A model generated the notes under the pieces. That model worked only from the letters and a program-made list of their open reading frames with translations, was not told the origin of the DNA and searched no databases. From the NCBI GenBank assembly GCA_019058295.1, contig JAHPZI010000021.1, forward strand, positions 128,001 to 192,000: a stretch of 64,000 bases of DNA. The letters run 5' to 3'. The position numbers were made by a program, and so were the translations under genes. The DNA is from Promethearchaeota archaeon. Its GTDB lineage: Archaea; Asgardarchaeota; Lokiarchaeia; Sigyniarchaeales; SOKP01. Below are positions 5,601 to 52,654 of the stretch, in pieces; position 1 is the first letter of the stretch, and each line of letters begins with the position of its first letter.

Positions 5601-6254
5601 TTGGTAAATAACGTTAACATAGAATGCCCAATATGCAAGACAATGAAAGTGTTAAAAATTCCATTAAAAATTATAAATCAGAGTAAGCAACTTACTACTG
5701 TGTCTGTACCAATAGGATTAGTGTGCAAACATAATTTTCAAGCTTTCATAGATAAAAATTTTAAAGTGAGAGGATATCAAAAAGTTGATTTTCATTTTTC
5801 AAAAATGGAATTTTATGAGGGAGGCATCAACTCTACTATTTCTGACTTAGAAAATGAACAAAAAGTAGAAGAACAATTGATTCAGCTCAGTTCAAAGCCA
5901 ATATTTATTGAAATTTTAAAACTTTTAAGAACTTATGTAGATGATGAGGATATTTTAGGAAGTGCTCTCTTTACATTAGAAGGAAAGGTATTATATTCAT
6001 CCTTACCATTGATGACATTAAATAATATAATTAGAGAATTTGAAATTAGAAATCAGAAGGAATTAATTCAAGTAGAAAAACTTTTTCTGGTTTTAACTAA
6101 TAAACAGAAAATATTCTCGCAATTTCTTGAGATTAGGGGTTATTCTCTTATTATAACTTTAATTTTTTCAAAAAAAATTCAATTAGGTATGGGAGATTTA
6201 CACTTAAGGGAATTAATAAAAAAAATATTAAAAATTAATCCATGTATGAATTAA
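5601..6254 (+). CDS. Zn-binding N-terminal domain plus Roadblock/profilin-like C-terminal domain
   Basis: CPIC...VCKHNFQAFIDKNFKVRGYQKVD (shared with 40161-40700); C-terminal ILGSALFTLEGKVLYSS. Confidence 0.6.
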   Translation: MVNNVNIECPICKTMKVLKIPLKIINQSKQLTTVSVPIGLVCKHNFQAFIDKNFKVRGYQKVDFHFSKMEFYEGGINSTISDLENEQKVEEQLIQLSSKPIFIEILKLLRTYVDDEDILGSALFTLEGKVLYSSLPLMTLNNIIREFEIRNQKELIQVEKLFLVLTNKQKIFSQFLEIRGYSLIITLIFSKKIQLGMGDLHLRELIKKILKINPCMN

Positions 6255-6324
6255 TAAACGAGGGAAAGAAGATATATTAAATCAAATAGAGCTATTAAAT
6301 GGATAAAAATGAAATGATAATAAA

Positions 6325-8160
6325 ATGGAAAGCAAATTAAATCAAGAAAATCAATATTTAAAATCTATTTTTGACTCAATTTTCGATGAAATAATGATTC
6401 TTGATAGAAACTACCAAATATTAGATGTGAATAAGACATTCTGCGATAAATATAATGTTTCAAAAGAGGATGCTATAGGATCAAAATGTTATAACTTAAC
6501 ACATGGAATTAATATGGTTTGTAAACCACCTGAATGTATCTGCCCTGTAGAAAATGTTTTAAAAACAGGAGAATTCTGTGAATCAATTCATTCCCATCAT
6601 ATAGATGGAGATATAAAATATATAGAACTATTAGCTTTTCCAATTAAGGTTAATGGTGGTTCTATTGAGCAAATTGTAAAAATTGGAAGAGATATTACAG
6701 ATAAGATCAAAGCAAAAAATATATTAAAAGCTTCCGAAGATAAATTTCGAAATTTATTTGAAAAGTTACCTTTTTCAATATTCCTATTAGATTCAAATTA
6801 TAAGATCATTGAATGTAATAGCATATCAGAAATATATATGAATGAATCTAAAAATGAATTAATAGGTATGAATTTCATAAATCTTTTTTCAATCTCGAAA
6901 AAAAAGGTTAAAGAAATCAATGAGATTTTAACAAATGTCATTAAATTTGATTTAAGTGAAATTTTAGAATTGAAATTTATTAATTATAATGGGCAATTAG
7001 CTTGGGCGGAACTTTTCTTTTCATCTGTAATTCTAAGGAATGAAAAATATATCCAAATCATTTTACAAGATATTACTGAAAGAAAATTAATAGAAGATAT
7101 TATAAAGAAAGAGAACCAGAAATTAAGAGAATTAGATCAATTAAAAAAGCAATTAATGGCTCAATTATCAGAAAAATTGAAGTCTCCACTAAATAATATT
7201 TTTGATATTACTGAAATTCTTCTGAATTCCTACAGAGAACAATTGGATGATGAAATTATAGAACTTTTGGATATGATCAAAAAAGGAGGAGAAAGATCAA
7301 TTGATATGGTTGGAAAAATGCTTGAGATCTCAAAAATTGAGGCTGATAAGCTTGAACTTAACTTTCAAACAGAAAATTTATTTGAAATTATTAAGGATTC
7401 AGTGAAAGAAATTAATGATCAAATAAAAAATCAAAATATTATTCTAAATTTAAATCTTACAGAGGATTTGTACTCTGATATCGATAAAATTAGAATTAAA
7501 TATATAATTAAATACTTGTTAACAAGTATCATTAAAGCCAAATCCTTAAAAAAAGAAATAATTGTTTCATTGATTCAAAATAACCATAATGCTGAAATAT
7601 CAACTTCTTTTAGTGGTATTGGTATAAAAAAATTAAAATCTCTTTCTGAGTTGGAATTCTCAAGAGAAATCATTGATCTACATGGAGGCAATTTAATTAT
7701 TAATTCTGAAAGTAAGAAAAAGGAAACCAATATTGTAATAAAATTACCTCTAAAAAATTGGAAGGAATCTTTAATTCATATTTACATTATATATAGGTCT
7801 GGAATCCCACTATTCGATTATTCCTTTATTGAAAAGACTAAAGCTGACAATACTACTCTAATTTCAGGGAGCATTATTGGTATGATGACTCTTTTAAAGG
7901 CAATAATACATGGGAAAAAACAGATCAAAACAATTGATCATGGGGATAGGAAATTAATGTTTGAGATGAATAGCACTAATGATGTGTCTTTTATTCTATT
8001 AGTTAAAGAGGATTTACACATATTGAGAAAAAAATTGAATGATTTAATTGAAGTTTTCGATAAAAAATATAGATATTTAATCAAAAAAATAGATATGACT
8101 CATAGTATTAGTAATTTATGGGAAGAACTCCATGTACTTATTGAAAAATTTTTTGGATAA
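6325..8160 (+). CDS. PAS-PAS / degenerate histidine kinase / longin-like domain fusion
   Basis: Two PAS-PAC units (RDITD, QDITE). H-box reads LSEKLKSPL with no His; HATPase eroded. C-terminal IHIYIIYRSGIPLFDYSF...LISG...IKTIDHGDRKL. Confidence 0.7.
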   Translation: MESKLNQENQYLKSIFDSIFDEIMILDRNYQILDVNKTFCDKYNVSKEDAIGSKCYNLTHGINMVCKPPECICPVENVLKTGEFCESIHSHHIDGDIKYIELLAFPIKVNGGSIEQIVKIGRDITDKIKAKNILKASEDKFRNLFEKLPFSIFLLDSNYKIIECNSISEIYMNESKNELIGMNFINLFSISKKKVKEINEILTNVIKFDLSEILELKFINYNGQLAWAELFFSSVILRNEKYIQIILQDITERKLIEDIIKKENQKLRELDQLKKQLMAQLSEKLKSPLNNIFDITEILLNSYREQLDDEIIELLDMIKKGGERSIDMVGKMLEISKIEADKLELNFQTENLFEIIKDSVKEINDQIKNQNIILNLNLTEDLYSDIDKIRIKYIIKYLLTSIIKAKSLKKEIIVSLIQNNHNAEISTSFSGIGIKKLKSLSELEFSREIIDLHGGNLIINSESKKKETNIVIKLPLKNWKESLIHIYIIYRSGIPLFDYSFIEKTKADNTTLISGSIIGMMTLLKAIIHGKKQIKTIDHGDRKLMFEMNSTNDVSFILLVKEDLHILRKKLNDLIEVFDKKYRYLIKKIDMTHSISNLWEELHVLIEKFFG

Positions 8161-8200
8161 ATTAAAAAAAATATGTGTTATTGAGATTAAGGCAAAATAG

Positions 8201-9100
8201 GTGGTTGAAATTACTACAATAAATGGGAAAGTAAGTCATCATTATATCTGTCCTGAATGTGGTGGTAGTATCATATTAGATCAAGAGAGAGGTGAAACCG
8301 TTTGTAGTCAATGTGGGTTGATAATTAATGATAAGTTTTTTATTACTTCATATTCTGAGAAAAGGGCATTTACTCGAGAAGAAAAATCTAGAAAGTCGAG
8401 GACTGGAATATTAATTTCTCCTTTATTATCAGATTTAGGATTATGCACGTTAATTGATAAAAAGAACATTAATAATCCTGATTTAAAAAGGGCTGTGAAG
8501 AGGGATTCATATTTAACATGGAAAAAAAGGAATTTATTGATTGCATCAATAGAATTAAAAAGGCTTAGTACAAATTTAGGGATTCCTTGCCATGTAATAA
8601 GTGTGGCATTAAGGTTCTATAAAGAAATTTTTAAAAACAATTTGTTAAAAGGTAGAACCATTAAAGGGATGGTTGCTGCGTGTTTATACGCTGCGTGCCG
8701 GAATGAAAATCTACCAAGAACATTTCAAGAGATATTAAATGAATCTCCGATTAGTTGTAAGACAATTAAAAAATGTTTTAAAATAGTACTCAACTACTTC
8801 AATTTAAAATTGCCACAAGCAAACATAATCTCTTTTATTCCTAGATATACTTCGGCACTAGGTCTAAATAATGATGTTGAAAAATTCGTTATAAAAATTT
8901 TACAAAGTTATTTAAGAAAGGTATCTAATAATGGCAAAAATCCAAAAGGACTCTACGCTGGTGCAATTTACCTTGCTTCAAAACTAAAAAATTCTGGGGT
9001 GACGCAAAAGGAAATCTGTGAAGTCGTAGATACGACCGAAGTCACGCTCAGGTCTAGATACAAAGAGATTATTGAGAATATTAATTTCTTGACAATTTAG
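8201..9100 (+). CDS. tfb: Transcription initiation factor IIB paralogue
   Basis: CPECG...GETVCSQCG Zn ribbon; cyclin repeats KGRT...AACLYAACR and GKNPKG...TEVTLRSRYKE. Confidence 0.92.
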   Translation: MVEITTINGKVSHHYICPECGGSIILDQERGETVCSQCGLIINDKFFITSYSEKRAFTREEKSRKSRTGILISPLLSDLGLCTLIDKKNINNPDLKRAVKRDSYLTWKKRNLLIASIELKRLSTNLGIPCHVISVALRFYKEIFKNNLLKGRTIKGMVAACLYAACRNENLPRTFQEILNESPISCKTIKKCFKIVLNYFNLKLPQANIISFIPRYTSALGLNNDVEKFVIKILQSYLRKVSNNGKNPKGLYAGAIYLASKLKNSGVTQKEICEVVDTTEVTLRSRYKEIIENINFLTI

Positions 9101-38092: not shown

Positions 38093-38713
38093 ATGGATAA
38101 TAGAAAAAATAGCGAAGGTGATATTTTAAATCAAGCCTTCGAATTAATGGGAAAAGGTACTGATTTAGCAAAAGTAAAAGAATACGATGAGGCATTAAGA
38201 TTATATAATGAAGCTGTAGAATTACTAAGAGAAATTAATTGGGTTGACCAAATTCAAACAATCCAAAAAACAATTGATCAGTTGGAAATAGAAAGAATAC
38301 ATCATAATCAAGCTTTAGAAAAACAAAAAGCTCGTGATGAAAAACAACGCAAATTAAAAGCTGAAGAGGCAATCTTAGAAGAGAAACAAGCTAAAGAAGA
38401 AAAAGAAAGAATAGAAAGTGAAAGAGCAAGGAAAATAGAGAAGTCTGAAAAAGAGAAGGATTTTAAACAGCAAATTGTTGATATGGAGGAATATACTGAT
38501 AAAATGATAAGAGAATACGAATCTCAGATTAAGAAAGGAAATTTTAACTCAGATCCTCCATACGAAAAAGTAATTAGAATATATTTGAATATGAGAAGTT
38601 TGTTAACAGAAAAAGGTTGGAAGGCCCAAATTGATAACGTTAATGAACAAATTAAATTTTTCATAGAGAAAATAGAAAAAGATAAAAAATTACGAGAAAT
38701 TTATTCGGCATAA
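38093..38713 (+). CDS. Helical (TPR/MIT-like) coiled-coil protein
   Basis: YDEALRLYNEAVELL; two W..Q repeats (NWVDQI, GWKAQI) flanking an E/K-rich coil. Confidence 0.6.
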   Translation: MDNRKNSEGDILNQAFELMGKGTDLAKVKEYDEALRLYNEAVELLREINWVDQIQTIQKTIDQLEIERIHHNQALEKQKARDEKQRKLKAEEAILEEKQAKEEKERIESERARKIEKSEKEKDFKQQIVDMEEYTDKMIREYESQIKKGNFNSDPPYEKVIRIYLNMRSLLTEKGWKAQIDNVNEQIKFFIEKIEKDKKLREIYSA

Positions 38714-40160: not shown

Positions 40161-40700
40161 ATGTTGAAAGATTCGTATGCAAATTCAGATATAAGTGAAA
40201 TTGATATTTCACATGAAGTTAAGATTGTAAATGTTATATGTCCTCTTTGTAAATCCAAAAAAGAAATTACTGTTCCAGTAACAATTATCAACCAAACAGG
40301 TCTAACAACAGTATCTATACCTAAAGATTTAGTTTGCAGCCATCATTTTCAAGTTTTCATTGATAAGCAATTTAAGGTTCGGGGTTATCAAAAAGTAGAC
40401 CTTGATTTGGCTCTTAATAAAAATAAGGAGTCTAATATTGATAATTTCAATAAAAAAGATGACGAGCTTTTCGAAAATCTAATTCTAGAAGGCAATTACC
40501 TTGAATATAATCCAAAGAAGGTAAAAAAGATACATATAAATAGTGAACCTGAAAAAATTGTATCCAATGAGGAAAAGGTAATGACTCTTAAAGAAATATA
40601 CGAAGAATTTTGGGAATTCATAGATGATGATAATCCTGAATTTAAAGAGTATATCATAAAAGATAAAAAGAGAAGACAAGGAGTAAAAAGAAGGAATTAA
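40161..40700 (+). CDS. Zn-binding domain protein, paralogue of 5601-6254
   Basis: CPLC...VCSHHFQVFIDKQFKVRGYQKVD. Confidence 0.7.
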   Translation: MLKDSYANSDISEIDISHEVKIVNVICPLCKSKKEITVPVTIINQTGLTTVSIPKDLVCSHHFQVFIDKQFKVRGYQKVDLDLALNKNKESNIDNFNKKDDELFENLILEGNYLEYNPKKVKKIHINSEPEKIVSNEEKVMTLKEIYEEFWEFIDDDNPEFKEYIIKDKKRRQGVKRRN

Positions 40701-40901: not shown

Positions 40902-42068
40902 ATGTATTTAAGCGGTCTAATAAGGAAAGAATTTAGTAGAATTAAAGCCGATAAAAGAACGTTAATTTTAATATTTACAATCCCAGTCATATTAATCGTG
41001 ATATTCGGTCTAACTAGTGGAGGAGGCCCCACTGAATTCTATAACGCTGCAATTATTTCTCGTGATAAAATACCATACGAAACTCCTGAATTCCCTGTCG
41101 AATCAAATTCTACCCTTAATTATGACGATATATTTATTGATGTTGTGGAGGATGATTGTTCAGCATGGGGCCTTATTGAATCGTACTCATGTGATAATGA
41201 GGAAGAGTATGATGATGCATTTGAAGAGTGCTTTGAGCTCCTAAGGAATGAAATCATAGATGTATTTATTATTTTAGAGGAAGATTTCTCTGAAACAATA
41301 GAGAACGAAACTGATACAACTCTTACTTATTACATCGATGGATCAGATTTAGAGGCGGTTGATGCAATTGATGTGGCGATTCAGGAACCGATTGGTTTGT
41401 TTAAAATTAAGGCGCGAAAGACGGCTAATTTTGTAATAATGGTTCCTTATCTGGAGTATGAAGTTCCTTTTTGGGAGACTCAGGTACTCAACTATGCCCT
41501 ATCCATAGTTTTATCAATGCTTATTCTAGGATTGTTAATGAATCTTACTTCTTTATCAATTGTGTCTGAAGGACCGCTCCCACGTATGATGCTTACTCCA
41601 ACAGCAAAAAAAGAAATAATCTTAAGTAAACTGATTGCAAATTCTATAATAATGTTATTACAGGTAACAATTATATTTGCTATGTCAGCGATATTTGGGA
41701 TGTTTTCTTTAGGATCATTGTTTAGTCTCTATTTGATTTTAATTGCAATAGGTTTTTGTGGGATTTGCATTGGATTATTCATTTCCTCAATAAGTAAGAC
41801 GGAACAACAAGCAAACCAAATTTATATAATGCTTTTTATCGCTTTATTGATGTTTTCAGGCTCATTCTTAAGAATGGATACATTACCACTCGCAATGCAA
41901 GTCATAATCAATGCGTTGCCATTAAGTCATGCCGTTCCATTAATAAATGAAGTTACTAAAAAAGGCTTACCTATTGATTTATTCCACTTTTTTAGTTTAA
42001 ATTTGATTTCTTTGGGGTTCATAATAGGAGCATATATTGCGTATAGATTTAAAAAAGTGGAGGTCTGA
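40902..42068 (+). CDS. ABC-2 type exporter permease
   Basis: IRKEFSRIKADKR, acidic ectodomain, LTPT...ILSK, FSG, PLSHA. Confidence 0.88.
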   Translation: MYLSGLIRKEFSRIKADKRTLILIFTIPVILIVIFGLTSGGGPTEFYNAAIISRDKIPYETPEFPVESNSTLNYDDIFIDVVEDDCSAWGLIESYSCDNEEEYDDAFEECFELLRNEIIDVFIILEEDFSETIENETDTTLTYYIDGSDLEAVDAIDVAIQEPIGLFKIKARKTANFVIMVPYLEYEVPFWETQVLNYALSIVLSMLILGLLMNLTSLSIVSEGPLPRMMLTPTAKKEIILSKLIANSIIMLLQVTIIFAMSAIFGMFSLGSLFSLYLILIAIGFCGICIGLFISSISKTEQQANQIYIMLFIALLMFSGSFLRMDTLPLAMQVIINALPLSHAVPLINEVTKKGLPIDLFHFFSLNLISLGFIIGAYIAYRFKKVEV

Positions 42069-42074
42069 TAAATA

Positions 42075-43307
42075 TTGGATGAGAATAATCATAATACGAG
42101 TAGCATCGACACGTATGAAGGTGGTTTTTTAAAATTAAAAATTCGATTATTTCGATTGGTAAAACAGATAAAAAAAGAATTCCAGCTTTTAAAAACCGAT
42201 AAAGTAAATCTATTTATTGCCCTCGCACTACCACCACTAATAATATGGATGTTCGCTTCCATGTCTTCTGCTGGTGCCTCAGAGATCATTCCAGTTAAAT
42301 GTACTGTTGTTAGCTACGATTCCGAAGTATATGTCAATCAAGATAACTATACTATTACAACTTTTTGGGATAATTTTACTGAAAGATATTTAGACGCGGT
42401 CGAAAAATCTAAATATTTGGACCTTGTTGATTTCTACGATGCAAGTGAAGAAAAATATGCTATGGAAACGGCAAGAGATGATTTACGTGATAGTAAAATT
42501 GGAATTATAATTGAGATTCCTGTAGAGTTCTCAGAGTTTTTATCTACAGGTTTACCTGGTATAATCGAATGTATACCAGATTCCTCAGAAATATTCTATA
42601 TTCAAGAAAAACTCAATGCCGTTGAGGATTCAATTGATCTTTTTGTGGAAGATAACAATTTAGACCCTCAATTCGTCCGTATGGAATACGACGAGTACTC
42701 AGTGCCATCTGATTATAATTTCAGATTCAATTATAGCATGATTATATTATTTTCATTTATGATTTTTGGTATTAGCACTGTACTTACTATTTTAGTAGTT
42801 GTACAAGAAAAACCTATACCTCGTCTTTTGCTAACCCCAGCTAAAAAACATGAAATTCTCTTGTCCAAATATATTACATATTTAATTATTTTAGCGCTCC
42901 AAGTATTTCTAATTCTTTCAACTGCACTTCTTAATGGTCTCTATGTGGCTGGCTCGTTGTTTGATATATTTTTAGCCTTATTCATTTTAGGCTTAACGGG
43001 CGTCTCTTTAGGAATGTTTATCAGCACTGTTAGCAAAACTAAGACAGAAGCTAATCAATTATTCTTCGCCGCGTTCATTGTCATTGTCCTTTTGAGTGGG
43101 ATTTTTGTTCCCATAGAATCTATGCCTGAATATTTACAAATAGTGGCGTTTATCTTACCATTATCTCATGGAAAACCAATGATAAATGGAATCTTATCAA
43201 AAGGGAAATCAGTCTTTTGCTTCGACTTTTTTGCTTTGCTTATTTTAAGTATTGCATTTATATTACTTTCATTTTTGGTAATTAAAAGAAAAAGATATGA
43301 GGTGTAA
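42075..43307 (+). CDS. ABC-2 type exporter permease
   Basis: IKKEFQLLKTDK, LLTP...ILLSK, LSGIFVPIESMP, PLSHG. Confidence 0.88.
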   Translation: MDENNHNTSSIDTYEGGFLKLKIRLFRLVKQIKKEFQLLKTDKVNLFIALALPPLIIWMFASMSSAGASEIIPVKCTVVSYDSEVYVNQDNYTITTFWDNFTERYLDAVEKSKYLDLVDFYDASEEKYAMETARDDLRDSKIGIIIEIPVEFSEFLSTGLPGIIECIPDSSEIFYIQEKLNAVEDSIDLFVEDNNLDPQFVRMEYDEYSVPSDYNFRFNYSMIILFSFMIFGISTVLTILVVVQEKPIPRLLLTPAKKHEILLSKYITYLIILALQVFLILSTALLNGLYVAGSLFDIFLALFILGLTGVSLGMFISTVSKTKTEANQLFFAAFIVIVLLSGIFVPIESMPEYLQIVAFILPLSHGKPMINGILSKGKSVFCFDFFALLILSIAFILLSFLVIKRKRYEV

Positions 43308-44333
43308 ATGATCGAAAAATCTGCTGAAATAATGGTAAATGTTGAAAATTTAAATGTTAAATTCGGAGACAAACAAGTTGTTCATAATGTATCTTTTCAA
43401 GTGAAATCCGGAGAAATAATCGGTTTATTTGGTATCAGCGGTGCTGGTAAAACAACAATTATACGAGTACTTACGTGCCAGCTCAATAAAAAGAACTGGA
43501 ATGGTAACGTAAAAGTCACGGATTTAAATCCCGCACAAAGTAAAAATCATCCGAAAATCTTAAGCAATATTGGATATGTTCCTCAACTTGAAGGACTCAA
43601 TCTTTACTATGAGTTGTCACCTATGACGAATGTAGAAATATTTGCATCAACATATGGATTGAAAAAAAAAAATGCGAAAGAAATAGCAAAAGAACTATTT
43701 TCGATACTTGACATTCCAGAAGATACTTGGAAAAAACGGCTAAAAAAATTAAGCGGAGGAGAAAAAAAGAGAGTTTCCGTAGCGATTGGTTTAATCCATC
43801 AGCCTAAAATTCTATTTCTTGACGAGCCTACGACTGGTGTTGATGCCGCAAAAAGATATGAAGTTCTTTCATATTTAAAAAAGTTAAATCGAAAATTAGG
43901 GACGACAATGTTTCTTATTACACACGATATGGAGGCAGCTTTAATATGTGATAAAAGCGCGATTTTGAGAGATGGAAAATTATTAGAATTCGATTCTAAT
44001 GATAATCTCATAGCATCACTCCCGAGTGGTGGCTTATTAACTAGATTAACTATTGAAGATCTTACTGAGAATAAAATAAAAATTATTAAAAATTTTACAC
44101 CCGTACAAAAAACTATACGTGTAGGAAATGAAATAATTGAAGTGTTTATTGAGGATTTTGAAGAAAACCTTCAAAAATTAATTGAATATACGATAAAAAA
44201 CAATTTAAAAGTTACGTCCATGAGTAAGGATAATGCTACTTTTAGAAGGTATTTCCAGATTAGAATCCAAGAAGAAGAGGAGAAAGAAAGGACATTAAGA
44301 GAAAGCGTACAGATAATGGAAGGTGAGGCATAA
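43308..44333 (+). CDS. ABC transporter ATP-binding protein
   Basis: GISGAGKTT, GYVPQ, LSGGE, LFLDEPTTG, ITH. Confidence 0.93.
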   Translation: MIEKSAEIMVNVENLNVKFGDKQVVHNVSFQVKSGEIIGLFGISGAGKTTIIRVLTCQLNKKNWNGNVKVTDLNPAQSKNHPKILSNIGYVPQLEGLNLYYELSPMTNVEIFASTYGLKKKNAKEIAKELFSILDIPEDTWKKRLKKLSGGEKKRVSVAIGLIHQPKILFLDEPTTGVDAAKRYEVLSYLKKLNRKLGTTMFLITHDMEAALICDKSAILRDGKLLEFDSNDNLIASLPSGGLLTRLTIEDLTENKIKIIKNFTPVQKTIRVGNEIIEVFIEDFEENLQKLIEYTIKNNLKVTSMSKDNATFRRYFQIRIQEEEEKERTLRESVQIMEGEA

Positions 44334-47300
44334 TAGAGAATAAAGCAAAACGAAAATTAAAAATATTATTATTATTATCAGCATTATTCGCTTTACAAAT
44401 TACCATTTTAGCTGTAATAAACTATCCTTGGATAAAATATTATGATGATGATGAACTTCAAGATTTGAAAGAAGATATGATGGAATTTTCATATTCACAC
44501 AAAAATTCTGATTCTGATCTTTTTATTGAACCTGAAATCGACGCAAACTTCCGTGCAATTGATTCAATTGATTTTTCTCAGGTTAATCCATATTTAACCG
44601 ATTTAATTTCTCCTAGGTCAATTAGTTATATTAAGGATTATGATGAGTTCTTTTTTGATTATTTATTTGAAAAACAGAACAATAATGGTTCATTTTCTGA
44701 TATTGGTGGGTTAGGCAACATGTTTTCAACTTATGAGGTAATAGAAATTATAGATTTATTAAATCCTACTTATTTTTATTTAAAATCCGATGAAATTGGG
44801 AAAATTTTAACTTATATCCAAAATTGTCTTGTAGAGAATGGATGGGGTTTTAAATATAATGAATACGCCCCTTTACCCGATATTATATCTACATATTGTG
44901 CAATTCATATGGCTAATATATTTAACGCCAAATCCATTCTTAGTAATCCAAATATTACTAATTATGTAGAACTAAGCACTTGGGCTGGTGAACCTGTTGA
45001 GCAATTGTATTATAGAATTAAAGCTTATTTAGAATTAGGGCAAAAATTCAATCAATTTCAAAATGATACTATTGCAAATTATCTTAAGAGTCTTAGAAAC
45101 ATCGATGGTGGATACTCTAACGTTGGAGGAGCCAACGTTCAATCTACTTTTTATGCATTATCATCAATGTATAGTTTAAATATTATGCCAGATGAAGCTA
45201 ATGAAACACTTCAGTTTGTCCTTAATTGTGGGAAGTTAGATGGAGGTTTTGGATCAGATCCTTATTTGAACAGTAGTTCAGATTTTACATCTGGATGGGC
45301 TGCCATGAAATCAATAGATTTACTCAAAGATAAGGTTAATTTACCAGGTGTGAATATCGAAACCTATATTCAAAATTATTATAACTGGTTATACACCCAT
45401 CAAGCAAAGAACGGATTATTTGGGCAAACTTCACTTGAAGCAAATTATTTAGGAGCATTATCGATATATCTCGTCGAGCCTGATAATTTTACTGATTATG
45501 TTGATATAGATAATATGTGGGACTATGTTGAAGATTGTTATAATAAAGGAGATGGAGGGTTTAGCTCTCAACCTGGTGGAAGTACAAGTTTATTAGCAAC
45601 TTATCATGCAATTAATCTTTATGAAATATTACTTATTTATTCAGATATTTCTCTTCCTGATAGAAAAGATATCATTGATTATTTAGTTGATCTTCAAGAT
45701 GATGATGGAGGATTTGAATTAGGGATTGATATAAATGAAATTATGTCACTTTTTGGACCATTAAGTCAAATGTTTACAGATCTAATTGAACCAGATGCAC
45801 CAACTATTGAAAGTACATATTGGGGTGTAGTATCGCTAAAAATTTTAGATGCTTTGGATAAGATAGATGAGGAAAATTTAATTCATTGGATTTCAGCAGC
45901 CCAAAGCGCTGATGGGGGTTTTCCAATAGTTTTAGGGTTTCATAGCGACACTATTTCAACTTATTTTGGATTAAAAACTTTAAAAATTTTAAAAATAGAA
46001 CCTATGTCAACAATTGCGGCAATAGAATTTTTGAAAAAAGCCCAAGATGAAGATGGAAGCTTTGTTCCGATCCCTGTAATCTCAGATCTTTTTGAGTTTC
46101 CATCGACATTTTTCGTATCATATTTCGCAGCAATGGGACTATACGAATATGATTTTCAACCAGAAAATATTGAAGATTTAATTGATTGGTACGAAGATTG
46201 TCTCAGTTCTAACACAGGAGGAATTGGAGACTTTCCTATGTTTGGTGGAGATTTAAGAAATACTCCATATGGTATAATGCTCATTGAAGAATTAAGTTAT
46301 GACCAAAGTTTTAACCCAAAACCTTGGAACGATTTAATTACTTCAATCTTTATTATAGAAATTTTAATATTACTTTTATTTGGCATGCTAAAGATTATTT
46401 CCTTATTAAATGTAACAGTTTCCAAAAAATTGAAAGAAAGATTTGGAGTCGGTGAAAAATATAATATATCATATTTGGAAAAGTTCCCAGCCATTTTATG
46501 CGATAGTGTAAATATTTTTGCTGGTAGAAAGTTAATAGTTGAGTCTGTGTCGATGAAATTAAAGCATGGAGAAATTTTAGGAGTCTTAGGAGAGAGTGGT
46601 GCTGGTAAGTCAACATTTGTAAAATCACTTTTAGGAATGCGAAAATATAATGGAAAAATTCAGATTTATGGTATGAATGTCAAGAAGAAACATAAGAAGA
46701 TGCGACCAATTTATGGTTATGTCCCCCAAGATCTTGGTAAAATTTACCTAAATTTCACGACTTTGCAAAATATAATGTATTTCGGAAAGCAATACGATAT
46801 GACAGAGAAATTGATTATGCAAAAAACAAAGCGGATATTAACCGCTTTAGAAATTGAAGATAAAATGCATGAAAAGGTTAAAAATTTATCTGGTGGTCAA
46901 AAAAGACGTGTATCCATTGCTATGGCATTAATTCATGATCCTATTATCATTTGGATGGATGAACCGACTAGTGGATTGGATCCAGTTGTGAGGGAAAATC
47001 TTTGGCTAGCATTGACTAAAATTAATGAACAATTTAATTCAACCTTAATAGTTGTAACTCATTATCCTGAAGAATCTCAATTTTGCCACCGCGTTGCCAT
47101 ATTTGGGAGAATGAGAGGGATGATAGATTATGGCCGTCCTAAAGATTTATTAGCTCAATTACCAGGTAAAGGAAGAACTGTAGACTTATATTTTAATGAG
47201 GTAAATGAAAATGCGATTGAAAGGCTCGAATCCATTGAAGGTATTGATAAAGCTCTTGAAAATAAAGCGGGAACTGATTTTTCTTTACTTTCCGATTTGA

Positions 47301-47431
47301 ATATAAACTCGATAGAAGAAAAAATTAAATTAAATTTTGGTAATGATTCTATTAAAGATATAAATCAGAACGATACAAAGATGGAACAATATTTTAGATA
47401 TAAAGCGATGGAGGTTCCAAAATTAGAATGA
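44330..47431 (+). CDS. Signal anchor - prenyltransferase/squalene-cyclase-like repeat ectodomain - TM - ABC ATPase fusion
   Basis: Frame extends upstream of 44465 to ATA 44330/44333, adding KRKLKILLLLSALFALQITILAVI. About 9 QxxDGGF..STYxA repeats, one TM, then GESGAGKS, LSGGQ, WMDEPT. Confidence 0.8.
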   Translation: MIENKAKRKLKILLLLSALFALQITILAVINYPWIKYYDDDELQDLKEDMMEFSYSHKNSDSDLFIEPEIDANFRAIDSIDFSQVNPYLTDLISPRSISYIKDYDEFFFDYLFEKQNNNGSFSDIGGLGNMFSTYEVIEIIDLLNPTYFYLKSDEIGKILTYIQNCLVENGWGFKYNEYAPLPDIISTYCAIHMANIFNAKSILSNPNITNYVELSTWAGEPVEQLYYRIKAYLELGQKFNQFQNDTIANYLKSLRNIDGGYSNVGGANVQSTFYALSSMYSLNIMPDEANETLQFVLNCGKLDGGFGSDPYLNSSSDFTSGWAAMKSIDLLKDKVNLPGVNIETYIQNYYNWLYTHQAKNGLFGQTSLEANYLGALSIYLVEPDNFTDYVDIDNMWDYVEDCYNKGDGGFSSQPGGSTSLLATYHAINLYEILLIYSDISLPDRKDIIDYLVDLQDDDGGFELGIDINEIMSLFGPLSQMFTDLIEPDAPTIESTYWGVVSLKILDALDKIDEENLIHWISAAQSADGGFPIVLGFHSDTISTYFGLKTLKILKIEPMSTIAAIEFLKKAQDEDGSFVPIPVISDLFEFPSTFFVSYFAAMGLYEYDFQPENIEDLIDWYEDCLSSNTGGIGDFPMFGGDLRNTPYGIMLIEELSYDQSFNPKPWNDLITSIFIIEILILLLFGMLKIISLLNVTVSKKLKERFGVGEKYNISYLEKFPAILCDSVNIFAGRKLIVESVSMKLKHGEILGVLGESGAGKSTFVKSLLGMRKYNGKIQIYGMNVKKKHKKMRPIYGYVPQDLGKIYLNFTTLQNIMYFGKQYDMTEKLIMQKTKRILTALEIEDKMHEKVKNLSGGQKRRVSIAMALIHDPIIIWMDEPTSGLDPVVRENLWLALTKINEQFNSTLIVVTHYPEESQFCHRVAIFGRMRGMIDYGRPKDLLAQLPGKGRTVDLYFNEVNENAIERLESIEGIDKALENKAGTDFSLLSDLNINSIEEKIKLNFGNDSIKDINQNDTKMEQYFRYKAMEVPKLE

Positions 47432-49179
47432 GTCTTACTCGAGTGCCACAATTAGAGGTTCTAAGATTAAAAATTGTTGATGCAATTCGATTTTCGGAAA
47501 AATATTGGATGATTTATAGAGAAAGAACCTTTGGAATTGCTACTATTTTAGATTTAATTTATAAAAGATTATATATTGAAATCTTATTTTTCACCAATGA
47601 GGATGTAAAGAAACGCGGTGTTCCCCTCATAAAAATATATACCCCAACAGAGACTGAATTTGATTTTATTGAAATTATAGTGGATCCAGATATTGATAAA
47701 GATGGACTTGTTAGCCCTAAAAAAATAATAGAAAGAGTTAATAAGCTGATTAAAAAAGAGTTAGAATATCATTTAAACATATTGGATAATGAAATTCAAT
47801 TAATTGATGAGCATTTTGAAAACAGTCCAGTTTATGGGAATCCTTACTTCAGAAAGATAAGAATTTATCTTCCGGATCTAATTATTAAATTCAAGATTAA
47901 TTTAGAAAAATACCCTCTTGAACCAAAATTAATGGAAAAAAATCAAATTATAATTGAAAAATATATAAAAACATATATAGATCGTTTTAAAGAGATATTA
48001 AGAGAGAAAATTACAGGTGTAGGCAGGCAAAAAGTAAAAAAGATGAAATCCTTTATGGAAGATCTTTCTATAAACACAGATGTAATTAAAGGTTGGGATG
48101 CTGAGAACCCGCCTCATGTCTTCCAAATAATTAGATCATTATTTAACTTAAAGGAGGGTACACAGAGTCTCGTACTTAATAATATATCTTCTGGAGACGA
48201 TATTAAAGATATAATATTTAGGATTCATAGAGGTCAATCAATTGGAATCTTTTACGATTTAGAATCATCAAGTGAATTGAGATCAACTTCACCAATCATG
48301 AAATTATTTAATATGATAGCGGGATCTCAATTAATAGATTCAGGAGATATCAAATTATTTGGAAAACATATACAGTTGGCTACGAATGATGAGTTGAAAA
48401 AAATTGTTATAACTTCGCATTTAATTGATGAGAGAATATTAAATATGTCTATTAAGAAAGCAGTACAGTACAATATTAAAATAAAACCAAAATGGAAAAT
48501 CAGAAAGAGAGCTTTTAGCACTAAAGTAAAATATGCTGGAATTTTTAGTAAAATTGACGAGATTATATCGTTGCCTCCAAAATACAAGACTAAAAAGAGC
48601 TTTATAAACTCCGCATTAGAAGTAACAGGACTATTAAACAGAAAAAAAGAAAAAGTGTCTAAACTTTCTAATATAGATCGTTTATTATTATCAATCTCAA
48701 GAGAACTTCTAAAATCACCTGATATAATTATGTTCTCTGTACCTCCACGCAAGTTAGAACGGATTCAAGGTGAAAATTTTAACGATTTTATGAATAAAAT
48801 AAAAAAGAAGTTTCACGTTATCTTAATAATTCATGGTCGTAAAAATATTGTTTCAAACTGCGATAAAATCCTTATGGTTTCTGGAAAAATTGCTGAACTT
48901 GGCACTGTCAATGATTTTATTTCTAAGATTCCCAATTTTGGTGAAATCATCACGATTGAATTAAATAACCCTGATATTGACGCATTGAAAAAAATGCTAG
49001 AAATTAAATCAGCAACCTTTATTACAGAACGTGTTAACGAAAAATACAAAATCTTTTCAAGAAAGAATCCAGATCAATTGATAATTAAATTAATGGAAAT
49101 CGTTGGCCCGTATATTTATAATTATAAAAAATATAAAGCATCAATGCTTGAATATTTAGAATTTTTTAATTTAAATTAA
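47428..49179 (+). CDS. RWD/UBC-like domain(s) fused to an inactive ABC ATPase
   Basis: NEIQLIDEHF...FKINLEKYPLEP...WDAENPPHV. ABC fold with no Walker A, signature LSNID and Walker B IIMFSV. Confidence 0.6.
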   Translation: MSLTRVPQLEVLRLKIVDAIRFSEKYWMIYRERTFGIATILDLIYKRLYIEILFFTNEDVKKRGVPLIKIYTPTETEFDFIEIIVDPDIDKDGLVSPKKIIERVNKLIKKELEYHLNILDNEIQLIDEHFENSPVYGNPYFRKIRIYLPDLIIKFKINLEKYPLEPKLMEKNQIIIEKYIKTYIDRFKEILREKITGVGRQKVKKMKSFMEDLSINTDVIKGWDAENPPHVFQIIRSLFNLKEGTQSLVLNNISSGDDIKDIIFRIHRGQSIGIFYDLESSSELRSTSPIMKLFNMIAGSQLIDSGDIKLFGKHIQLATNDELKKIVITSHLIDERILNMSIKKAVQYNIKIKPKWKIRKRAFSTKVKYAGIFSKIDEIISLPPKYKTKKSFINSALEVTGLLNRKKEKVSKLSNIDRLLLSISRELLKSPDIIMFSVPPRKLERIQGENFNDFMNKIKKKFHVILIIHGRKNIVSNCDKILMVSGKIAELGTVNDFISKIPNFGEIITIELNNPDIDALKKMLEIKSATFITERVNEKYKIFSRKNPDQLIIKLMEIVGPYIYNYKKYKASMLEYLEFFNLN

Positions 49180-49191
49180 ACATAAAAAAAT

Positions 49192-50016
49192 GTGAGTAAA
49201 AAAATGATAAAAAGTTTTTACATAATGAAACAAAATGGATTGTTGATATATTCAAAGAATTACACGAAAGAAGACTTTGAAGATAATATCATGATTGGTT
49301 TTTTTGCTTCAATCGCAAATTTTAGCAGAGAGGCCTTACGGAGTGTGATAAAATATATCGATTTGGGTCAAGATAATAAATTAATATTAGCTGAACAACA
49401 AGATGAAAAATTAGTGGCTGCAGCAATAGTTAATTCTTCAGACGATAATGACCTTATTACTAAAGTTCTTAATAACATCATGCACGAAATTATCATTATG
49501 TTTTCACCAGATTATGAATCTGACAAAATAGATATAAACGAAATGGAAAAAATAATAGATGGAAATATAAAAAATAAAACTAGCTTATCTACAATAAAAA
49601 GACTTGTTCTCTCGTGGATTATTTTAGTACCTATTACCATCTTAATTGCCATCTTAAATCTAATGGCAACTTCGTATTATTTTCAATACATTTTTTTTGA
49701 AGAGCGCACATATTCTCAAGAAGAATTAATTACTGAAGTAATTCCTGAAGTAATGGTTATATCAATGGTAATTGTAGTAATTGTTTTTGTACTTCCAAAT
49801 CTTATCTCCGGCTATATTACTTTAAATCGGAATTTAGCATTTTTAAATTCGGGGTTATATCTTGTAGTAATACTCATTGCCTATTTATATTCAGTAGATC
49901 CGCTATTTTTCTTTGTTATTCTTTTCTATTTACCTGCTGCTATTTTCACATCAAATGTTTTTGCATATATTGGTTTTAGATTAGGAATTAAAAAAAAAAT
50001 TGTAAAAAAAAAATAA
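49192..50016 (+). CDS. Longin-like domain fused to about 4 TM helices
   Basis: IKSFYIMKQNGLLIYSKNY...IMIGFFASIANFSRE...IKYIDLG; hydrophobic C-terminal half. Confidence 0.65.
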   Translation: MSKKMIKSFYIMKQNGLLIYSKNYTKEDFEDNIMIGFFASIANFSREALRSVIKYIDLGQDNKLILAEQQDEKLVAAAIVNSSDDNDLITKVLNNIMHEIIIMFSPDYESDKIDINEMEKIIDGNIKNKTSLSTIKRLVLSWIILVPITILIAILNLMATSYYFQYIFFEERTYSQEELITEVIPEVMVISMVIVVIVFVLPNLISGYITLNRNLAFLNSGLYLVVILIAYLYSVDPLFFFVILFYLPAAIFTSNVFAYIGFRLGIKKKIVKKK

Positions 50017-51502: not shown

Positions 51503-52654
51503 ATGGAGTATAATCTAAGAGATTTTTTTCTTCCACCATTATTCATATCGTTGGGGCTTGGTTATCAAATTTTCATATATTTTTTATATCAATATTATAA
51601 GGCTAAAAAAGAGAAATTAGAATTTACTGAAATTTTACTAGCTTATGGATTAATATTTGGATTAACTCTAACAGGATTTTTCATTCGTATAATAAATCTT
51701 TATTATACAAGAGAAATTAATATTGAAATCTTTCATTTCTTAACGAAAATAACTTTTCTTATCCTTTATTCAGCTTTAATGTTGTTTTTCATTATAATAT
51801 CAACCAAATCCTTCCAAAAAATCATAAACTCAATTTTTACAAAAATTTTAGCAATTTTATTAATTATACCAATGATTACAGTCTTTTTATTTCAACCTGA
51901 AAACCTTTTATTTGGTCTCATTTCTGGAATAACTCTCGGGATATCATATTCATATATCTTTTATTTTCATACTAGACTGATTAAAATTTCTACAGGTGAT
52001 ATAAAAAAAAGATTAAACCTCATACTTTTAGGATTAACATTATGTGCGATACAACATTTTATTGGAGGATATTTCCCCAGTTATGTATTATTTAAAGGTT
52101 ATAGTGAGCACCTTCAATTAATTTCTGCTCCAATATTTGTTTGTGGATTAATTATTGTTTTTTTAGGCGTTTTTAGATTTCCCGCCTTTCTTGAATTTGG
52201 ATGGAAAGAATCTCTACTATATGTTTTTATTATAAATCAAAGTAATTTAAAAGTAATTTACACATTTGATTTCAAAGAAATCATAAATCAACGTGGAAAA
52301 CCAATAAATAAACTTTCGGATATCAATGAAATTAAGCAGTTTTTTTCAAGCGGGATTATTGGAATCAATAAGATTATATCAGGTATAACAAACTCAAAAT
52401 CTGAATTTATTGAATCAATTAGACAAAAAGATTTCATAATTCTTTTGAATCGTGGAGATGAGCCTCAATCTTATATAATTTATTGTATATTAGTTAGTAA
52501 AGATATGAACAGCCTTAGATATTTTTTAAAAACAATTAAAAAGGAATTTGAACAGATCTATAAAAATATACTCATTAATATGAATGATCTAGAAGGCAAA
52601 GAAGAAAAAATATTCTCAAATTTTGATGCGATTATGAAAAAATTAATTGAATAA
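51503..52654 (+). CDS. Seven-TM membrane protein with a C-terminal longin-like domain
   Basis: Seven hydrophobic helices, then WKESLLYVFII...FFSSGIIGINKIISGI...IESIRQKDFIILL...LKTIKKEFEQIY. Confidence 0.7.
   Translation: MEYNLRDFFLPPLFISLGLGYQIFIYFLYQYYKAKKEKLEFTEILLAYGLIFGLTLTGFFIRIINLYYTREINIEIFHFLTKITFLILYSALMLFFIIISTKSFQKIINSIFTKILAILLIIPMITVFLFQPENLLFGLISGITLGISYSYIFYFHTRLIKISTGDIKKRLNLILLGLTLCAIQHFIGGYFPSYVLFKGYSEHLQLISAPIFVCGLIIVFLGVFRFPAFLEFGWKESLLYVFIINQSNLKVIYTFDFKEIINQRGKPINKLSDINEIKQFFSSGIIGINKIISGITNSKSEFIESIRQKDFIILLNRGDEPQSYIIYCILVSKDMNSLRYFLKTIKKEFEQIYKNILINMNDLEGKEEKIFSNFDAIMKKLIE

Follow-up and report, generated by a model that had tools for sequence, protein, structure and literature searches.

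A conserved ABC-2-type gene cluster of Asgard archaea with an ATPase fused to a predicted extracellular prenyltransferase-like double toroid

The ATPases of ATP-binding cassette (ABC) systems are, in the textbook view, soluble or permease-fused motors. Several described systems combine such motors with folded modules on the outer side of the membrane. The ABCA and ABCH exporters, the DrrAB-type pumps and NosDFY carry an outer domain between transmembrane (TM) helices 1 and 2 of the permease and a C-terminal regulatory-type domain past the ATPase; in ABCA (with its giant outer domains) and NosDFY (with NosD), the extracytoplasmic module that accompanies the pump is large. Here we describe a cluster of six tightly coupled open reading frames (ORFs) that shares these features, located at 40902-50016 on the + strand of a 64,000-nucleotide stretch of contig JAHPZI010000021.1 from a Promethearchaeota archaeon (hereafter, “the window” refers to this whole stretch, which has a G+C content of ~30%; the host assembly is 3.2 Mb in size and 79% complete). 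The genes encode, in order, two ABC-2 permeases (genes 1 and 2), a soluble ABC ATPase (gene 3), a fusion of a repeat ectodomain with a second ABC ATPase (gene 4), a pseudo-ATPase (gene 5) and a small TM protein with a candidate longin-like domain (gene 6). The cluster differs from ABCA, ABCH and NosDFY in that the outer module is fused to the ATPase by its own TM hairpin, rather than being fused to the permease or separate, and in that this module appears to be a prenyltransferase-type double toroid, accompanied by a dead ATPase, a longin-like TM protein and a zinc-ribbon protein. A preliminary description of the locus knew of no system with such an architecture, and our full-text literature search agrees: we found no description of a toroid-ATPase fusion system, and the literature searched contains no motor subunit that is linked across the membrane to a surface domain of ~625 residues. 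Also new here are a seventh linked gene, a conserved ATA start and a mini-intron in nine relatives.

Further groups of known proteins bear on gene 4. The type VII machines (MacB, LolCDE, FtsEX, BceAB) likewise couple an extracytoplasmic domain, set between two TM helices, to a cytoplasmic ATPase, and they work on the outer face without carrying cargo across the membrane. They are built on a 4-TM FtsX-type permease with other outer folds, whereas gene 4 has two TM helices, a C-terminal ATPase fusion and separate ABC-2 permeases as partners; no protein of the module has an FtsX match in Pfam. Another group comprises the beta subunits of the protein prenyltransferases (RabGGTase/GGTase-III, GGTase-I and FTase), from which the ectodomain differs in being, by prediction, extracellular, as well as tandem-duplicated, tethered to an ABC ATPase and without conserved Zn ligands. 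For these reasons, and because no PPTA-repeat alpha subunit is present in the conserved module (the part of the genome that was searched for one), we do not file gene 4 as a prenyltransferase. Archaea are known to have prenyltransferase-beta-like proteins of unknown role (PMC4915359). In public databases, homologues of gene 4 are annotated either as “prenyltransferase/squalene oxidase repeat-containing” or as “ATP-binding cassette domain-containing” proteins. The class II terpene cyclases (the beta-gamma part of squalene-hopene cyclase) belong to the same superfamily and also have two alpha/alpha toroids per chain, and some gene 4 orthologues reach the SQHop_cyclase Pfam models. However, the similarity of these cyclases to the ectodomain is much weaker than that of the prenyltransferase beta subunits, and the DxDD motif occurs in only 2 of 30 orthologues, at differing columns. 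Squalene cyclases are monotopic enzymes of the cytoplasmic face.

Gene 4 matches Prenyltrans (PF00432, E 1e-38, in four stretches) and ABC_tran (E 3.5e-27) in Pfam. Its ATPase motifs (GESGAGKST, LSGGQKRR, DEPTSGLD and THY) are invariant in 50 orthologues, so that the ABC ATPase is intact in Walker A, Walker B and signature, as had been claimed. Hydropathy detects only two TM segments (Table 1), and the charges are +4 at the N-terminus, -66 over the 627 residues between the segments, +3 in the stretch past TM2 and +7 in the ATPase part. In an AlphaFold2 model made with a 50-sequence alignment (mean pLDDT 87.8), two helices corresponding to these segments flank an all-helical region (residues 40-660), followed by an ABC fold and a C-terminal domain. 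Within TM2, Glu677 is nearly invariant. Because the ATPase must face the cytoplasm and a single helix separates it from the repeat domain, we place the ectodomain outside the cell and the ATPase inside on the strength of the model, hydropathy and charge pattern. This is the topology proposed earlier for the ATA-extended protein; a cytoplasmic barrel, which had been named as grounds for abandoning the proposal, does not fit with one TM helix between the barrel and the ATP-dependent domain.

The position of the gene 4 start required attention, as the ORF opens one codon past a TGA (44324-44326) and contains no ATG, GTG or TTG until residue 46. The 45 residues ahead of this first canonical start codon hold a basic patch (KAKRKLK) and a hydrophobic helix, in the sequence IIENKAKRKLK-ILLLLSALFALQITILAVINYPW. 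Orthologues with an ATG start keep the same N-terminus (MIENKTKRKL versus IIENKAKRKL here; other examples are MIENKTKRKLRI, MESKTKRKLKF and MDRKTKRKLKF), and in 28 of 64 orthologous loci there is no canonical start between the upstream stop and TM1, the ORF typically opening with ATA or ATT. Because the ATG-start orthologues share this N-terminus, gene 4 is predicted to start at the ATA at 44330 or 44333, overlapping the stop of gene 3, and the start appears to be conserved across lineages; only with this start does the protein reach 1033 aa. Such ATA/ATT starts would explain why many database entries are cut off inside TM1. The 4-nt overlap and the missing canonical start had also prompted the idea of a programmed frameshift joining genes 3 and 4; this is less likely, since several orthologues have ATG exactly where others have ATA.

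The ectodomain is acidic, ~625 aa long, and contains ~24 helices and ~11 QNxDGGF/STY repeats. In an exhaustive structural comparison of gene 4, protein prenyltransferase beta subunits rank level with the ABC matches, and the family profile matches RabGGTase beta with E 1e-23 and squalene-cyclase-like domains with E 2e-5. The ectodomain thus has the alpha/alpha toroid of PFTB repeats, and the fold of prenyltransferase/terpene-cyclase type that had been suggested from the sequence is upheld by Pfam, profile and structural comparison alike. Its N-terminal half (40-345) aligns with its C-terminal half (346-662) at 99.1% probability (E 6e-19). Given this half-to-half alignment, the helix count and the repeat count, we therefore read the ectodomain as two tandem prenyltransferase-beta-like alpha/alpha toroid modules.

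The catalytic signatures of this superfamily are not conserved in the ectodomain. Apart from the rarity of DxDD, DDxxD occurs in 3 of 30 orthologues and the CGEQ thioester in 0 of 30 (the match to PF07678 is weak, E 0.054). The Asp-x-Cys...His zinc site is likewise not found: DxC is present in 6 of 30 orthologues, and His57 is the sole His conserved at the level of at least 90%. At the repeat that lines up with the Asp/Cys ligands of RabGGTase, Thr/Glu are found in this family, by an alignment at the level of repeats rather than a superposition of residues. Because none of the superfamily's catalytic signatures is conserved, the ectodomain is most likely a binding module.

The fusion occurs in many Asgard lineages. 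We found > 120 full-length homologues of ~1000-1090 aa, and those that carry a name all come from Asgard (Promethearchaeota/Lokiarchaeia, Hermod-, Hod- and Thorarchaeota). Among public genomes, a metagenome-assembled genome of Promethearchaeota (Loki-type Asgard) comes closest to the locus, with 92-97% protein identity. A species-level scan (one genome per prokaryotic species) returned ~70 Asgard loci and a 28%-identical Helarchaeota variant; outside Asgard, the same scan gave only repeat-level matches of 24-27%. The six genes are collinear in 43 of the 47 loci with enough flank; for the upstream trio the count is 48 of 52 loci, and for the downstream pair 59 of 61. Collinearity fails where insertions intervene, in three loci that have no permeases within reach, and in the Helarchaeota locus. 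The ectodomain-ATPase fusion of the preliminary description is thus borne out as real, and the operon conservation that it had named as a check is found.

To define how general the module is, we surveyed 301 genomes at the phylum level (ectodomain matches at E ≤ 1e-10, strong matches at E ≤ 1e-34). The ectodomain is matched in 47 genomes, ~38 of them strongly, and 34 of the strong matches come from the window's own family, of which 68 genomes were sampled. The dead ATPase is present in all 34 of these ectodomain-bearing genomes, and ~31 genomes of the family, several of them 100% complete, have neither ectodomain nor dead ATPase. The module is real, Asgard-restricted as far as searched, and accessory; it is not a general Asgard feature. 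We also ran the ectodomain profile against 1.84 billion representative proteins. Matches covering the whole ectodomain in a single stretch extend down to ~E 1e-96, and shorter single-stretch matches, probably fragments, down to ~E 1e-60. At E 1e-56 and weaker begin the multi-repeat matches, which are secreted metagenomic multi-toroid “prenyltransferase/squalene oxidase repeat” proteins with 6-8 repeat matches to the same Pfam repeats. These are the next-nearest relatives of the ectodomain; unlike gene 4, the nine that were examined have no ABC ATPase domain.

Two of these metagenomic proteins (P0311, P0313) exceed the cut-off of the model for the N-terminal domain of Ribophorin II (E 1.5e-6); for the window's gene 4, the same model gives E 0.043. 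These matches hint that a lumenal domain of this oligosaccharyltransferase (OST) subunit lies in the same repeat superfamily. Asgard genomes also encode other very large prenyltransferase-type repeat proteins (1360-1470 aa; G169, G235), one of which lies 5 kb downstream of the operon in locus L010 (18679-19204). In the Helarchaeota locus (L087 1901-8350) the ATPase gene comes first, followed by the fusion, whose ectodomain has 28% identity, and then by permease 1 and permease 2; a dead-ATPase-like gene lies upstream on the opposite strand, and the longin-4TM gene and the N-terminal region of gene 5 were not found there.

Genes 1 and 2 match ABC2_membrane_3 (E 7e-27 and 6e-26) and are also above the cut-offs for PF01061 and PF12679, which places them in the ABC-2 permease family. 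By hydropathy, permease 1 consists of TM1, an acidic outer loop of ~150 aa (charge -30) and five further TM helices; permease 2 is its paralogue, with a loop charge of -24. The nearest solved relative of permease 1 is the insect transporter ABCH-9C (E 7e-14). Gene 3 matches ABC_tran (E 1e-26) and has intact motifs (GISGAGKTT, LSGGEKKR, FLDEPTTGVD, ITHD). Among the paralogues in the host genome, it ranks first for the gene 4 ATPase domain (31% identity, E 7e-43). A DrrA-type C-terminal domain comes after the ATPase in both genes, and ATPase and C-domain together resemble the TM_1403, NosF and ABCA NBD-R modules.

Spacing within the operon is tight. Genes 1 and 2 are separated by 6 nt and genes 2 and 3 by 0 nt, the junctions of genes 3/4 and 4/5 are 4-nt overlaps, and gene 5 is followed after 12 nt by the GTG of gene 6 or after 24 nt by its likelier ATG at 49204. 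A scan of the locus for promoters and terminators, with a method ill-suited to archaea, found them at chance level only. The ORF positions, shared strand and close spacing confirm the six-gene operon of the preliminary description. Its account of the module's content falls short in the number of genes, because a seventh linked gene is usually present. The coordinates of all features are collected in Table 1.

Table 1. Positions of the module's genes, the parts of gene 4 and related features (window coordinates, except where another locus is named)
Feature	Position	Strand	Basis
Zinc-ribbon-like gene (P0289, 179 aa), seventh linked gene	40161..40700	+	linkage in relatives
ABC-2 permease 1 (gene 1, 388 aa)	40902..42068	+	Pfam PF12698
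ABC-2 permease 2 (gene 2, 410 aa)	42075..43307	+	Pfam PF12698
Soluble ABC ATPase (gene 3, 341 aa), with C-terminal accessory domain	43308..44333	+	Pfam PF00005
Toroid-ATPase fusion (gene 4, 1033 aa)	44330..47431	+	ORF, Pfam, orthologues
Gene 4 TM1, residues 9-33, predicted signal anchor	44354..44428	+	hydropathy; model helix 4-31
Gene 4 ectodomain, residues 36-662, two predicted tandem toroid modules	44435..46315	+	Pfam, profile, model
Gene 4 TM2, residues 665-699	46322..46426	+	hydropathy; model helix 663-704
Gene 4 ABC ATPase and DrrA-type C-terminal domain, residues 716-1033	46475..47428	+	
Pseudo-ATPase (gene 5, 583 aa)	47428..49179	+	motif loss, extra N-terminal region
Longin-like + 4-TM protein (gene 6, 270 aa from ATG)	49204..50016	+	ORF opens at GTG 49192
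Soluble two-domain paralogues of the gene 6 N-domain	L102:1138-1941; L104:1501-2250	-; +	same genome

The seventh gene has a co-oriented homologue in 35-37 of ~64 Asgard loci, either 85-280 nt upstream of permease 1 or 130-270 nt downstream of gene 6. Persistence of the linkage at two alternative sites speaks for a functional connection with the module. The gene belongs to no Pfam family. Its N-domain has the invariant pattern CPxC...LTTxSIxKGxxCxHHFQxFxDxxFxxRGYQKVD, followed by a conserved acidic C-terminal helix, and the product is predicted to be a small cytoplasmic zinc-ribbon-like protein.

Gene 5, to which Pfam assigns no family, has an ABC fold and C-terminal domain at residues 243-583, in which Walker A, Walker B and the signature are lost family-wide. 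This loss bears out its earlier designation as a pseudo-ATPase, and by these motifs we consider gene 5 a dead ATPase. In its first 240 residues, secondary-structure prediction gives two alpha-beta4-alpha modules, and this region carries a near-invariant YPxxP (162-166) and a W223..PP motif. The pattern is compatible with UBC/RWD/UEV folds. The N-terminus has no match in Pfam (31 members searched), in the PDB profile search or among atlas features; a fold search with the whole model returned matches that sampled residues 243-583 only, the ATPase part filling the list.

Gene 6 comprises a soluble domain of ~130 aa, four hydrophobic segments in its C-terminal half and a K-rich C-terminus; because of the four segments and the K-rich tail, the soluble domain is expected to be cytoplasmic. 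Most of its 42 homologues have a MIK... start, equivalent to the ATG given above. It has no Pfam family and no PDB profile match. The N-domain is related to that of a soluble two-domain paralogue from the same genome (profile E 5e-8; hhalign 94%, E 1e-7), in which the same region matches the longin-fold family Sybindin (E 3e-4, 21.3 bits, under the Pfam cut-off of 25) and the C-terminal half gives a weak Roadblock/LC7 match. With these sub-threshold matches, the paralogue appears to be of the longin-plus-roadblock type, and a longin-like N-domain in gene 6 is plausible via this transitive, sub-threshold link. A relation of gene 6 to the neighbouring seven-TM (7TM) protein (51503-52654) was considered and rejected, the comparison giving 0.3%. 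Prediction of a complex of gene 5 and gene 6 scored 0.00 in two runs, a value with no bearing for or against binding.

What might such a machine do? Our favoured answer, held tentatively and at somewhat less than an even chance, is a type V ABC exporter or extractor, one that supplies the tethered toroids with an isoprenoid-type lipid or lipid-linked molecule. The two paralogous permeases with their acidic outer loops would form a heterodimeric membrane domain, and the soluble and the tethered ATPase would form the motor heterodimer on the permease pair. The TM1/TM2 hairpin would hold the double toroid above the permeases' outer loops. ATP hydrolysis would then extract or flip an isoprenoid-type lipid (an archaeal membrane lipid, a polyprenyl- or dolichyl-phosphate-linked glycan or a similar hydrophobic cargo), which would go to the toroid cavities as acceptor or chaperone, comparable to the giant outer domains of ABCA and to NosD in NosDFY. 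The dead ATPase, the longin-TM protein and the zinc-ribbon protein may regulate or localise the machine from the cytoplasmic side. In support of an exporter, there are two ATPases that are catalytically competent by their motifs, and the permease is nearest to a lipid exporter, ABCH-9C. Several considerations weigh against it. The isoprenoid idea comes solely from superfamily membership, and toroids of the alpha/alpha type have glycan and peptide ligands as well. A different pairing is conceivable, with the tethered ATPase partnered by the dead one and the soluble one as a homodimer. To our knowledge, Asgard archaea have no outer membrane or known extracellular lipid acceptor, and the patchy distribution (half of one family, sporadic elsewhere) disfavours a role in core lipid homeostasis.

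Competing explanations start from the same parts. An unlikely but serious one is a mechanotransmission or receptor machine, in which the cycle of the tethered ATPase, perhaps partnered by the dead one, moves the toroids via TM2 so that they act on a substrate at the cell surface, in the manner of FtsEX, LolCDE and MacB, or a ligand on the toroids gates the ATPase and with it the exporter, with no cargo passing through gene 4. The order TM-ectodomain-TM-ATPase puts the outer domain in a mechanical line with the ATPase, the near-invariant Glu677 suggests an intramembrane partner, and a dead ATPase with three cytoplasmic adaptor-like proteins, always or often present, would suit regulation better than plain pumping. 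However, the permeases are of the ABC-2/type V rather than the 4-TM FtsX type, both live ATPases have the fully canonical motifs of a working pump, and the conserved module contains no surface enzyme or partner. Were the flow reversed, the toroids would capture a hydrophobic nutrient or cofactor in short supply and pass it on to the permeases, as the fused binding domains of OpuA and GlnPQ do. We consider such an importer distinctly improbable: a big outward binding-type domain tethered to a transporter and a patchy accessory distribution typical of nutrient uptake would fit, but the ABC-2/type V folds characterised so far are exporters, flippases and extractors, the nearest solved relatives here are exporters, and importers have their tethered binding domains joined to the permease, not to the ATPase.

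Very improbable, in our judgement, is that the toroids are an active extracellular prenyltransferase or terpene cyclase that acts on lipids or surface proteins and is powered or regulated by the ATPase. The clear homology to prenyltransferase beta and the weaker one to squalene cyclase invite this idea, against which stand the lack of a conserved Zn triad, DxDD, DDxxD or thioester, the Thr/Glu in place of the RabGGTase Asp/Cys, the absence of an alpha-subunit-like gene from the module and the cytoplasmic location of prenyl diphosphate donors. That the fusion is itself an artefact, with an assembly or gene-calling error joining a secreted repeat protein to an ATPase gene, had been raised at the outset, and it could draw on the lack of a canonical start in the window and on the many N-terminally truncated database entries. 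It has next to no chance of being true, since dozens of independent assemblies contain a single uninterrupted ORF of 1024-1100 codons, the model is confident over the full length, and the conserved ATA/ATT start accounts for the missing canonical one.

A bolder version of the lipid-export reading can be framed, although we regard it as improbable: a regulated, Asgard-born machine for lipid export or membrane remodelling, consisting of an ABCA-like split transporter with an isoprenoid-taking extracellular double toroid, switched from the cytoplasmic side by a dead ATPase with E2-variant-like domains and a membrane-anchored longin domain. It would form an archaeal link from an ABC lipid pump to the eukaryotic longin/GTPase and ubiquitin-like adaptor toolkits. 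The wider interest comes from the position of the Asgard lineages as the closest archaeal relatives of eukaryotes. If the toroids do bind isoprenoid lipids, the module would be the first candidate machine in Asgard for removing archaeal lipids or lipid-linked glycans from the membrane, with a bearing on the way these cells form protrusions, surface layers and vesicles. Because the nearest solved relatives of the ectodomain are eukaryotic protein prenyltransferase beta subunits, the family is also relevant to the origin of the eukaryotic prenyltransferase fold. The dead ATPase, the longin-like membrane protein and the zinc-ribbon protein represent three uncharacterised families with a fixed genomic partner, which makes them experimentally approachable.

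Other genes around the operon lie outside the module. Conservation does not extend past the closest relative for an MIT-like gene, a 442-aa ORF, a major facilitator superfamily (MFS) gene that follows the operon convergently, and two 7TM genes. The first of these (38093-38713) encodes a 206-aa protein with a sub-threshold MIT-domain and TPR match at its N-terminus (E 2e-5). The link to eukaryote-like trafficking drawn in the preliminary description could not be substantiated, since beyond the closest relative the adjacent 7TM and GTPase genes are not conserved and the longin match is a weak one. FAD_binding_4, CCG/Fer4 and CoA-ligase-like genes lie near 16-29 loci and are absent from the window; we read them as synteny shared among relatives. 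In four loci (L037, L039, L044 and L025), insertions of 1.7-2.5 kb separate genes 4 and 5; the one in L025 (Hermodarchaeota, 5869-8367) contains a cupin, a PadR regulator and a hydrolase.

A final observation concerns relatives of gene 3. In nine orthologous loci, including the window's closest relative, the soluble ATPase gene is split by 31, 32 or 34 nt between the LDEPTT and GVD codons (L024, at 7380-7401, L028, L029, L038, L050, L064, L074, L085 and L088); the window's own copy has no intron. The insertion brings stop codons and a frame shift, and its exact removal restores the frame in all three length classes. All nine insertions fold as a canonical archaeal bulge-helix-bulge, with a 3-bp exon-exon helix, a 4-bp central helix, an inner helix of 4-10 bp and two 3-nt bulges, the cut falling after the second nucleotide of each. 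Pairing in the central helix is complete (4/4) in seven loci and 3/4 in two, with compensatory changes among UACC/GGUA, AACU/AGUU, GACU/AGUU and AACU/GGUU. The insertion is probably a tRNA-type mini-intron in a protein-coding gene.

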